Virus record (IMG/VR): IMGVR_UViG_3300012002_000216
Coordinates: 1 to 57,881 of that record
Origin: a virus
Lineage: Duplodnaviria; Caudoviricetes
Length of the DNA: 57,881 nucleotides
Strand: one strand, 5' to 3'
Within the stretch, counting starts at the first letter, position 1. Every line of letters begins with the position of its first letter. Position numbers and translations under genes: made by a program. Shown piece after piece: positions 47,532 through 47,604 of the stretch. Below the pieces are notes generated by a model. That model was not told the DNA's origin. It ran no database searches and saw nothing but the letters and a program-made list of their open reading frames with translations.

Positions 47532-47604
47532 GCTCCTATAGCTCAGAGGTCAGAGCAGGGTACTCTAAATACTCTGGTCCTGGGTTCGAATCCCAGTAGG
47601 GGCA
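47532..47604 (+). tRNA. amber suppressor tRNA, anticodon CUA
   Basis: Acceptor GCTCCTA/TAGGGGC, D arm GCTC..GAGC, anticodon stem GGGTA/TACTC with loop CT-CTA-AA (anticodon 47565-47567), T arm CTGGG-TTCGAAT-CCCAG, discriminator A, CCA not encoded. Confidence 0.92.

Follow-up and report, generated by a model that had tools for sequence, protein, structure and literature searches.

A UAG-reading tRNA gene beside a PTH2-family gene in a standard-coded fragment of a putative jumbo phage

The IMG/VR virus record IMGVR_UViG_3300012002_000216, whose entire 57,881 bp are referred to here as the window, carries a tRNA gene with anticodon CUA in a region where TAG serves as a true stop codon. The UAG-reading tRNA gene is confirmed to be real and structurally intact, while suppression itself is predicted. 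The joint explanation that we favor, and regard as probable by a modest measure, is a genuine tRNA(CUA) in a standard-code jumbo phage, charged by the host and giving partial UAG read-through, with the adjoining gene for a PTH2-family peptidyl-tRNA hydrolase as its partner. Phage suppressor tRNAs are usually explained as a switch for reading recoded late genes, and a growing set of large phages carries CUA tRNAs without recoding. Given that TAG is common as a stop in the window, the cost of suppression should be high. The PTH2-family gene, found beside a CUA tRNA in the window and in several unrelated large phages, offers a concrete candidate partner. Should the pair act together, it would constitute a new viral route to alter host termination or tRNA recycling and a simple two-gene test system; otherwise, this is one more unexplained case of a known class. 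By its sequence, the tRNA appears to lie within a small translation module comprising the PTH2 gene, a hairpin, the tRNA(CUA) and two aberrant tRNA-like elements, which is followed by a GroEL gene:

47140..47499, + strand: PTH2-family peptidyl-tRNA hydrolase gene, 119 aa (Pfam PF01981, 68.8 bits, E 6e-19)
47511..47528, + strand: hairpin of 7 pairs (GGTGATC / GGTCACC) with a GAAA loop, in the spacer between the PTH2 gene and the tRNA (sequence reading)
47532..47604, + strand: class I tRNA, anticodon CUA, reads UAG (Rfam RF00005, ARAGORN and sequence reading)
47611..47728, + strand: tRNA-like element 2 (Rfam RF00005, 40.9 bits; ARAGORN -i)
47991..48119, + strand: tRNA-like element 3, weak, with an insert (ARAGORN at the lowered threshold -ps80 only)
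48792..50432, + strand: GroEL chaperonin gene, terminated by TAG (Pfam Cpn60_TCP1, 246 bits)

The record is estimated by CheckV to be about 18% complete, and relatives of its GroEL (63-89% identity) occur on contigs as long as 274,414 and 292,485 bp, which carry GroEL genes 85% and 63% identical to it, respectively. From this estimate and the 274-292 kb contigs of the relatives we infer a jumbo size (>200 kb) for the uncultured phage of which the record is a 58-kb piece. Capsid, portal and terminase genes were not recognised in the window. Megablast of positions 40000-57881 against phages and tblastn of the 848-aa ORF at 23144-25690 gave no match. Likewise, IMG/VR yielded no close relative when searched by the exact tRNA pattern, by the 848-aa protein, by GroEL alignment (best 52% identity among the matches listed) or by a clade-specific GroEL peptide pattern, which retrieved one unrelated phage. 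Bacterial GroELs predominated in a metagenome scan with GroEL, where the best match reached 49%. Matches of the tRNA to Spirochaetota were rejected as a clue to the host, since they are tRNA-Arg(CCU) and uninformative on this point.

The first-pass annotation had described a canonical cloverleaf with anticodon CUA, G1-C72, U3.G70 and A73, and this description is borne out by the covariance model, by ARAGORN and by the sequence. Rfam RF00005 matches 47532-47604 with 65.6 bits (gathering score 29, E 4.5e-12, model positions 1-71), and ARAGORN reports a single tRNA in the window, at 47531-47606 (+) with anticodon cta. The acceptor stem is formed by G1-C72, C2-G71, the U3.G70 wobble, C4-G69, C5-G68, U6-A67 and A7-U66, with A73. 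The seven-base anticodon loop, C-U-CUA-A-A, has U33 and, in position 37, a purine. All conserved nucleotides behind the tertiary fold are in place, namely U8, A14, U33, the D-loop GG and, in DNA letters, the T loop TTCGAAT. The gene is without an encoded CCA, GCAGAC standing directly 3' of it. ARAGORN labels it tRNA-Pyl because of the anticodon alone, and we rejected this assignment: the tRNA has a canonical, GG-containing D loop, a 5-base variable loop and 5 pairs in its anticodon stem, whereas PylT combines a short D loop lacking GG, a 3-base variable loop and a 6-pair anticodon stem with pylS/pylBCD nearby. Pyl genes were absent from the window ORFs scanned with Pfam. A promoter scan near the tRNA returned 6 matches against 5.4 in shuffles, and a terminator scan of 46000-49000 found none.

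The body of the tRNA resembles Lys and Ile2 (CAU) tRNAs, in agreement with the earlier remark that its D and anticodon arms are of Ile2/Lys type. Among 121 bacterial tRNAs with the same first 15 bases, 72 have anticodon CAT, 27 CTT or TTT and 16 CCT or TCT, and the best full-length phage matches are tRNA-Lys (74-80%), the nearest being Lys(CUU). Once the anticodon is masked, two tRNA-Lys(CUU) share an identity of 0.76-0.77 with the window tRNA, other CUA tRNAs at most 0.74 and other isotypes at most 0.68; bacterial CAU (Ile2/Met) tRNAs match as well as Lys tRNAs do (0.77-0.79). In E. coli, LysRS reads U35 and A73, and U34 and U36 are also Lys identity elements. The window tRNA has U35 and A73, and differs from Lys(UUU) in its C34 and A36. 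Lysine is therefore our best guess for the charged residue, based on these two nucleotides and the Lys/Ile2-like body. A single isotype origin for such tRNAs was sought by nearest neighbor and rejected: within their own genomes, the nearest isotypes of 15 comparator CUA tRNAs were Arg (3), Lys (3), Asn (2), Ile (2) and five others once each, giving no consistent origin.

The visible genes follow the standard code. Among 58 curated ORFs of the window, 31 end in TAA, 14 in TAG (24%) and 13 in TGA. The seven TAG ends listed in the first-pass annotation (4530, 8697, 28542, 45301, 50432, 53260 and 56322) are all TAG stops of ORFs in this set, and the 2790-aa ORF at 31183-39555, said to have no internal TAG, is indeed open under code 11. 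Coding density, the check proposed at that stage, reaches 96-97% under code 11 with a greedy ORF set and gains nothing from reading TAG as sense (0.94 versus 0.96), which argues that the region is not recoded, the density test being blind to a few isolated in-frame TAGs. No visible gene requires TAG as sense: about 23 kb of tail and baseplate genes contain no in-frame TAG, and the late genes for two tail tubes, a baseplate wedge (PHROGs) and a tail-fibre chaperone domain are open under code 11. With the visible genes standard-coded and UAG a stop, the tRNA is not the key to recoded genes in this region. TAG ends 1 of 10 structural genes and 13 of 48 others, which gives no signal (p 0.42).

The statement that this is not a fully recoded phage stands for the visible region, where TAG is a true stop; as a claim about the whole phage it rested on some 18% of the genome (CheckV), so that it holds for the visible part only. 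No release factor (RF2) or aminoacyl-tRNA synthetase was seen in a Pfam scan of 18 of the 19 ORFs of at least 295 aa plus the neighbors of the tRNA, a scan that left out the 2790-aa ORF and most small ORFs, with the remaining 82% or so of the genome lying outside the window. Such accessory genes are optional in published recoded phages. The idea of an early stage of stop-codon reassignment is not supported: in the published route, as given in the available part of a preprint (Borges et al., 10.1101/2021.08.26.457843), TAG becomes rare first, while here it ends 24% of ORFs. This proportion exceeds the 9.7% (110/1138) found in nine comparator phages (p 0.0015). The median distance to the next non-TAG stop is 25 codons after TAG, against 12 and 19 after the other stops. 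With TAG commoner than in the comparators and backup stops no nearer, nothing in the genome points to adaptation to an efficient suppressor.

Timed read-through and interference with host termination, the roles suggested in the first-pass annotation, are conjectural. Read-through targets were sought throughout the window. The peptides beyond all 14 TAG stops look non-coding, except for two in-frame neighbor genes with their own starts. In-frame neighbors follow 3 of 14 TAG stops and 5 of 44 other stops, so that TAG shows no excess of them (p 0.38). A fused 207-aa read-through product (10814 to 10191, minus strand) had no homologue of 113-363 aa. The ORF at 50436-50723, in frame downstream of the TAG-terminated GroEL gene, is a separate gene, and a GroEL fusion occurred in none of nine close relatives (all 540-542 aa, within a search range of 300-956 aa). 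An ORF with two TAGs at 47765-48082 was rejected as a target, having no Pfam match and an odd composition.

The PTH2 gene and the tRNA share a strand, with 32 nt between the end of the former and the start of the latter. Aligned to PDB chains 2ZV3, 1RZW and 1XTY, the PTH2 product carries Arg where the Sulfolobus enzyme has Lys18, which we take to be the catalytic residue, and some 7 residues are missing from it behind the acidic IEED stretch. Aligned with 19 phage PTH2 proteins, the window copy is of the canonical type, and a short subfamily, in which the same conserved lysine is replaced by Tyr, Val or Gln, adjoins a CUA tRNA in five comparators. A PTH2-family gene lies within 0.5 kb of a CUA tRNA on no fewer than 4 of the 17 comparator contigs. 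Matches at the Pfam cut-off were found in the window and in G002, G004, G011 and L178, and sub-threshold matches in G005, L183 and L170. With an HMM of our own, a PTH2-like ORF lay within 500 bp of 7 of 18 CUA tRNAs and 9 of 299 other tRNAs (Fisher p 4.6e-6); this value is to be read with the facts that the comparator tRNAs were chosen by a pattern derived from the window tRNA, the HMM was seeded with four of the tRNA-adjacent copies, the compared regions were deliberately chosen and related phages are not independent. A tblastn search with the window protein missed the tRNA-adjacent copies of the comparators, which the HMM recovered. The ORFs flanking the CUA tRNAs of phage XacN1 are not PTH2, and no tRNA is annotated within 2 kb of the best PTH2 copy in any of five cultured phages. 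The window lacks the 'HDCGKP' protein seen alongside the pair in three comparators. The linkage is a new point, inasmuch as we found no paper on it or on the lysine-less short subfamily, and this adjacency may provide a clue to how the tRNA is used.

The other elements of the putative module are less regular. The hairpin has no T-run 3' of its stem and is a possible processing or punctuation signal. Element 2 retains intact acceptor, D and T arms, with 47 extra bases in place of the anticodon arm; ARAGORN in intron mode reads it as Ser(GGA), placing a 34-nt insert at the unusual position 31/32, and the fold of element 2 is not better than shuffles (z -1.23). Element 3 aligns with it as a paralogue, sharing the D-arm type, the T arm GTAGGTTCGAATCCTAC and the 3' strand CAGTGCT-A; at E<=5, Rfam detects no tRNA there on the + strand. 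The visible tRNA set comprises one intact and two aberrant members, and the degenerate look of elements 2 and 3 suggests that the array may be in decay. Within 47400-48200, no ribozyme or further Rfam family was detected at E<=5, and the 262-nt spacer at 47729-47990 folds no better than shuffles.

Look-alike CUA tRNAs were found on 17 IMG/VR contigs, 11 of which measure at least 146 kb, and ten large comparator records hold 26-59 tRNA matches each. In forty 20-kb samples from nine large records with such tRNAs, covering 19-48% of each, coding density under code 11 is 0.81-0.99 and the gain from TAG as sense is at most +0.06, so that all nine look standard-coded. XacN1, L169, L181, L182 and L184 carry tandem pairs of these tRNAs whose acceptor stems differ while the anticodon stays CUA. 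The window tRNA probably belongs to this recurrent class of CUA tRNAs in tRNA-rich large or jumbo standard-code phages, represented by XacN1, RsoM2USA, CBB and IMG/VR records.

On the favored reading, a host synthetase would charge the tRNA, as a best guess with lysine, and the charged tRNA would compete with release factor 1, resulting in partial UAG read-through. The adjoining PTH2 protein would free the tRNA from peptidyl-tRNA that has left the ribosome, or otherwise act on it. The phage might benefit from the decoding of a few in-frame UAGs that the other four fifths of its genome may hold, from the lengthening of host or phage proteins, or from the buffering of nonsense mutations. A bolder version, which we consider fairly unlikely, makes the tRNA and PTH2 a two-part device at UAG codons in standard-code jumbo phages, either for tRNA-guided chain release and recycling at UAG without host RF1, or for controlled read-through in which a hydrolase-like partner, often without the conserved lysine, binds or gates the tRNA. 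Such a device would account both for a linkage that persists in distant phages despite rearrangements and for a UAG reader beside frequent UAG stops.

Among the competing explanations, a neutral or recent chance event deserves the most attention, unlikely as we hold it to be. A tRNA-Lys(CUU), by one change at position 36, or a tRNA-Ile2, by two changes, would have acquired the CUA anticodon by accident in a decaying array, leaving a roleless and perhaps poorly charged tRNA. The anticodon arm of a phage tRNA-Lys(CUU), GGGCA-CTCTTAA-TGCTC, is close to the GGGTA-CTCTAAA-TACTC of the window; the neighbors are aberrant tRNA-like elements, stop usage bears no sign of adaptation, and no read-through target is visible. 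However, the cloverleaf is flawless and scores high with Rfam, many large phages have CUA tRNAs, frequently in duplicate and with the anticodon kept, and an accident in one lineage does not account for the recurrence of the PTH2-tRNA(CUA) neighborhood in distant phages. A mere sequencing or assembly error at the anticodon, in favor of which nothing was found and which would need to strike one particular base while similar CUA tRNAs occur in independent assemblies and cultured phages, is a practically negligible alternative.

A late code switch of the kind known from crAss-like, Lak and other recoded phages, in which capsid, portal, terminase and lysis genes in the unseen 82% or so contain in-frame TAGs and the tRNA, itself encoded in standard-code DNA, turns them on, strikes us as quite improbable. 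It gains from the limited view of the genome (18%, with no capsid, portal or terminase gene recognised) and from the available portion of a 2026 survey (PMC13037316), in which recoding of jumbo phages is confined to hallmark-gene regions and insert-bearing tRNAs, of which the window has two, are frequent in recoded jumbo phages. The code switch has to face the TAG-free 23 kb of tail and baseplate genes, the 14 TAG stops among 58, whereas published recoded lineages, in the parts of those sources available, lose TAG first, the lack of a release factor or synthetase in the Pfam scan (18 of 19 ORFs of at least 295 aa, the 2790-aa ORF left out), the standard-coded look of all nine comparators (19-48% of each sampled) and XacN1, which the accessible sections of its report give as complete and not recoded (PMC5852040). 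Very improbable in our judgment is a tRNA that is no plain UAG suppressor, with a modified C34 that reads UAA, with a non-decoding or termination role alongside the PTH2-like protein, or serving as a decoy for defence nucleases that cleave tRNA. C4-G69 and C5-G68 are TilS determinants, hence the proposal of lysidine at C34 through host TilS; the acceptor stem GCTCCTA is shared with the 72 CAU tRNAs among the 121 with the same first 15 bases, and the link to a PTH2-family gene with an altered conserved lysine is tight. The available part of Iyer et al. (PMC7824862) also reads phage PTH2 as a rescue factor after tRNA cleavage. Against this, the tRNA has every elongator feature, and an ochre reader would be even costlier, since TAA is the commonest stop (31/58).

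Several known systems can be set beside the favored reading of a host-charged, partially suppressing tRNA with a PTH2 partner. Normanly, Kleina, Masson, Abelson and Miller reportedly found in 1990 that E. coli amber suppressors derived from tRNA-Lys and tRNA-Ile2 insert lysine. These laboratory suppressors are, like the window tRNA, class I with a CUA anticodon and A73; they are engineered and were tested in vivo, whereas the window tRNA is a natural phage product. G1-C72 with A73 is not known as an acceptor end favored by GlnRS. The recoded phages with TAG as Gln (code 15: crAss-like, Lak, Garnet, Topaz) resemble the window in carrying a CUA tRNA in standard-code DNA. In contrast to them, the visible part of the window has no in-frame TAG, low density or TAG depletion, its structural genes follow the standard code, its scanned ORFs include no RF2 or synthetase, and its tRNA has a Lys/Ile2-like body with G1-C72 and A73. 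The phage PTH2 of Iyer et al. 2021 (PMC7824862) is, like that of the window, a PF01981 protein encoded beside tRNA genes, and comes from a jumbo phage, the presumed source of the window as well; it differs in being interpreted as ribosome rescue, and the word 'suppressor' is absent from the available part of that text.

The closest parallels are Xanthomonas phage XacN1, Ralstonia phage RsoM2USA and Pectobacterium phage CBB, which are large, tRNA-bearing phages of myovirus type, as the phage of the window probably is, and share with it an intact class I CUA tRNA, annotated in CBB as tRNA-Pyl with anticodon CTA. A CUA tRNA in a standard-code jumbo phage is an already known puzzle: the available portions of the two reports give XacN1 as a standard-code phage with two CUA tRNAs in each terminal repeat, 18 amber stops in a set of 592 proteins and no target in an in-silico read-through search (PMC5852040), and RsoM2USA as a standard-code jumbo phage with one CUA tRNA lacking a known target (PMC8504454). 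As in the window, the XacN1 type keeps TAG as a stop and has no homology or coding signal past its amber stops. The differences lie in TAG usage, the 18 amber stops of XacN1 standing against 24% of the visible ORFs in the window, in the encoded CCA of the XacN1 CUA tRNA genes, which the window gene lacks, and in the single intact tRNA visible here. A PTH2 gene is present in both XacN1 and RsoM2USA; in XacN1 it lies about 138 kb from the CUA tRNAs, while in the window it adjoins the tRNA. The tRNAs themselves are alike, the window tRNA agreeing with the XacN1 CUA tRNAs at 58 of 71-72 positions and with other XacN1 tRNAs, in the stretch examined, at no more than 49 of 69.

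The tRNA with anticodon CUA lies in a short segment that also holds a peptidyl-tRNA hydrolase gene of the PTH2 family (Pfam PF01981) and two tRNA-like elements:

47140-47499, + strand: PTH2 ORF (Pfam 68.8 bits), ending 32 nt 5' of the tRNA
47511-47528, + strand: hairpin of 7 pairs with a GAAA tetraloop, in the spacer that separates the PTH2 stop from the tRNA
47531-47606, + strand: tRNA, anticodon cta (ARAGORN), the sole tRNA called in the 57,881-base window
47611-47728, + strand: tRNA-like element 2 (Rfam tRNA 40.9 bits), with 47 extra bases replacing the anticodon arm
47991-48119, + strand: tRNA-like element 3, a weaker paralogue of element 2
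48792-50432: GroEL gene

The CUA tRNA is real. The Rfam tRNA model scores 65.6 bits over 47532-47604 (E 4.5e-12; gathering score 29), and the acceptor stem, read from the sequence, comprises G1-C72, C2-G71, U3.G70, C4-G69, C5-G68, U6-A67 and A7-U66, followed by the discriminator base A73. Four pairs form the D stem, whose loop contains GG; the anticodon stem, of five pairs including one G.U, closes the loop C-U-CUA-A-A; there are five bases in the variable loop, the T arm reads CTGGG-TTCGAAT-CCCAG, and the gene encodes no CCA. The description in the first-pass annotation thus agrees with ARAGORN, Rfam and the sequence in all details. The 'Pyl' label assigned by ARAGORN mirrors the anticodon alone. 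Elements 2 and 3 have good acceptor, D and T arms and carry 34-47 extra bases at the place of the anticodon arm, an insertion that ARAGORN positions, oddly, at 31/32 in a tRNA-like element. The two are not ordinary tRNAs, and their inserts are too short to be group I introns; the elements may be tRNA genes in decay or an unfamiliar kind of tRNA-shaped RNA. Just 3' of the hairpin at 47511-47528, CAGTGCT resembles their 3' acceptor strands.

Stop-codon usage in the window is that of a standard code. Under code 11, a greedy ORF set spans 96-97% of the window, and, once spurious ORFs over the tRNA region are dropped, its 58 ORFs end in TAA (31), TAG (14) and TGA (13). All seven TAG gene ends listed earlier are in this set, and the 2790-aa ORF is open as stated. 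Reading TAG as sense brings no gain in coding density (0.94 vs 0.96 under code 11); its effect is to add short tails or fuse neighbours, nothing else. The proposal of an early step towards stop-codon reassignment receives no support from stop usage, with TAG ending 14 of 58 ORFs. In the tail/baseplate block (21826-44747), ten ORFs end in TAA (8), TAG (1) and TGA (1), the lone TAG being followed by TAA two codons further on; this TAG share does not differ significantly from that elsewhere in the window (1/10 vs 13/48, p 0.42). The search for a read-through target was likewise negative in the window. The tails past the 14 TAG stops (1-106 codons) look non-coding, except for two that enter the next gene, each of which has its own start, and backup stops after TAG are not enriched. 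None of the GroEL relatives (540-542 aa) is fused to a downstream ORF, and a homologue search with the other TAG fusion product was empty.

The source genome is the window itself, a linear virus record put at 18% complete by CheckV, with ORFs truncated at both ends and no terminal repeats; it is probably a fifth or so of the genome of an uncultured jumbo phage. Because of this, the statements on the code are limited to the visible fifth, which takes in late structural genes over about 23 kb. Recoding elsewhere in this phage's genome is improbable. Among the genes of the window, those for replication encode a primase, an SMC/Rad50-like ATPase, a 5'-3' exonuclease and a family A polymerase represented by its N-terminal half, and those of the tail module encode a pair of paralogous tail tube proteins, a baseplate wedge protein (PHROGs for these three) and a fibre bearing an S74 chaperone domain; genes for capsid, portal or terminase were not recognised in it. 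Megablast of 40000-57881 found no DNA-level likeness among 50,697 phage records, and tblastn of an 848-aa tail-region protein against phage records gave no match. GroEL has nine close relatives in a large protein collection (63-89% identity), all from metagenome assemblies, two of them encoded on contigs 274,414 and 292,485 bp long; after these, the best matches, which are also the closest among cellular proteins, are chaperonins of Spirochaetales (about 52%), a weak hint at a possible host lineage. In the polymerase ORF (12556-16232) an exonuclease domain precedes a polymerase domain that breaks off midway (positions 2-197 of the 381 in the Pfam profile), the second half being absent from the window; the ORF ends in TGA, past which the same frame continues with a response-regulator receiver gene and, after that, one for a membrane GGDEF diguanylate cyclase. 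An 837-aa protein (2017-4530) carries a DUF6267 domain at its N terminus (255 bits), and its phage homologues, all hypothetical proteins of about 30% identity, occur only in T4-like cyanophages, pelagiphages and a few other large phages.

To place the tRNA among other phages, a pattern derived from it (D arm, CTCTAAA loop, T arm) was searched over IMG/VR, yielding 17 contigs, 11 of at least 146 kb and 7 of at least 290 kb. Ten large comparators have 26-59 tRNA matches per record, and several carry tandem CUA tRNAs with differing acceptor stems. The 360-kb record G003 (locus L174) has, at about 24.3-26.3 kb, a cluster of tRNA-Lys(UUU), two CUA tRNAs and an ochre-reading UUA tRNA. In forty 20-kb stretches from nine records (19-48% of each), density under code 11 is 0.81-0.99 and TAG-as-sense adds at most 0.06, so that these comparators look standard in code by a test that is blind to a few isolated in-frame TAGs. 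TAG ends 110 of 1138 comparator ORFs (9.7%), significantly fewer than the 24% of the window (p 0.0015); the window is therefore even less accommodated to a suppressor than its peers.

The identity of the charged residue was approached by comparison of tRNA bodies. In blastn, the full-length phage matches are led by actinobacteriophage tRNA-Lys (74-80%), and a CUA tRNA of jumbo phage XacN1 matches at 84.5% over 57 bases. The 5' acceptor strand is identical in tRNA-Lys of Gordonia phage GMA2, and the anticodon arm is nearly equal to that of Rabbitrun tRNA-Lys(CUU), in which U36 to A alone would give CUA. With the anticodon masked, identity to the GMA2 and Rabbitrun Lys(CUU) tRNAs is 0.76-0.77; in a panel of about 335 phage tRNAs, other CUA tRNAs reach no more than 0.74 and the remaining isotypes no more than 0.68. 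Among the matches listed, 121 bacterial tRNAs share the first 15 bases, with anticodons CAT (72), CTT (19), CCT (12), TTT (8), TCT (4), TAT (4), TGT (1) and CGT (1), and the best CAT and Lys tRNAs are equally close to the window tRNA (0.77-0.79). The 'Ile2/Lys-type' likeness proposed earlier is accordingly a fair description, Lys(CUU) being nearest among the phage tRNAs. Lysine is our best guess for the residue charged, because it is the residue that E. coli amber suppressors with a Lys or Ile2 body and A73 are reported to insert.

The recurrent PTH2 neighbour is the most useful new lead: with it, a tRNA that lacked an explanation becomes part of a two-gene module open to testing. Seventeen phage records contain PTH2 homologues, including XacN1, Xoo-sp13, RsoM2USA and Atu_ph07, and in 8 of 10 large comparator records. 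The copies near CUA tRNAs in comparator records (G) and fetched loci (L), relative to the Pfam cut-off of 23 bits, are as follows:

G002: 33.6 bits, same strand, ending 18 nt 5' of the CUA tRNA, far from the main tRNA clusters
G004: 75.1 bits, starting 409 nt 3' of the CUA tRNA
G011: 31.1 bits, ending 52 nt 5' of the CUA tRNA, within a dense tRNA array
L178: 36.2 bits, ending 389 nt 5' of the CUA tRNA, with tRNA-Cys in between
G005: PTH2-like, 21.6 bits (under cut-off), 207 nt from the CUA tRNA
L183: PTH2-like, 16.7 bits (under cut-off), 73 nt from the CUA tRNA
L170: PTH2-like, 15 bits (under cut-off), 24 nt from the CUA tRNA

Eight records yielded 14 PTH2 matches by Pfam, six of them with some tRNA within 500 bp, a CUA tRNA being included in four of the six. 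With our own HMM, a PTH2-like ORF lies within 500 bp of 7 of 18 CUA tRNAs vs 9 of 299 other tRNAs (p 4.6e-6), in a sample where the CUA tRNAs were picked by the window-derived pattern, the regions had been chosen deliberately, four of the adjacent copies went into the HMM seed and related phages are not independent. The association is not universal: the ORFs flanking the XacN1 CUA tRNAs are not PTH2, the Pfam-detected copies of G003, G006, G007 and G009 lie away from CUA tRNAs, and five cultured phages have no annotated tRNA within 2 kb of their best copy. G003 has an HMM-only PTH2-like ORF about 0.7 kb from the UUA tRNA of its suppressor cluster.

By alignment, the adjacent copies of G002 (L171), G005 (L180), G011 (L234/L176), L178 and L183 form a short PTH2-like subfamily (about 105-129 aa, 18-389 nt from the CUA tRNA, five IMG/VR contigs) that has the F-x-E-P-D motif. 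The lysine of G-K..A-Q..H-A, which we take to be catalytic K18 of the Sulfolobus enzyme, is replaced by Tyr (G002, L178), Gln (G005, L183) or Val (G011), and non-adjacent copies keep it in 12 of 13 cases, with Arg in the other. The window PTH2 is of the canonical type, with Arg at this lysine and about 7 residues missing after the acidic stretch. A further protein, 'HDCGKP' (Y/F-H-D-C-G-K-P-x-C ... G-x-x-H-F/Y-P-x-H; no Pfam match), stands beside the PTH2/CUA-tRNA pair in G002, G004 and G005 in differing gene order and is absent from the window; its loci in three huge phages (336-517 kb) are:

L171, 10349-10912, - strand
L179, 7911-8510, + strand
L180, 2359-2763, + strand

Our literature search found no paper linking PTH2 to suppressor tRNAs; Iyer et al. 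(PMC7824862) assign phage PTH2 to ribosome rescue following tRNA cleavage.

CUA tRNAs of standard-code jumbo phages are an already known class. XacN1 has two CUA suppressor tRNA genes per terminal repeat and 18 amber stops, and in silico read-through uncovered no similarity (PMC5852040); RsoM2USA has one CUA tRNA (PMC8504454), and Pectobacterium phage CBB has a tRNA annotated 'Pyl' with anticodon CTA. Borges et al. (preprint, 10.1101/2021.08.26.457843) describe a standard-code relative of recoded phages that gained a suppressor tRNA, and propose that stop-codon depletion precedes recoding. The window tRNA is a further member of this class.
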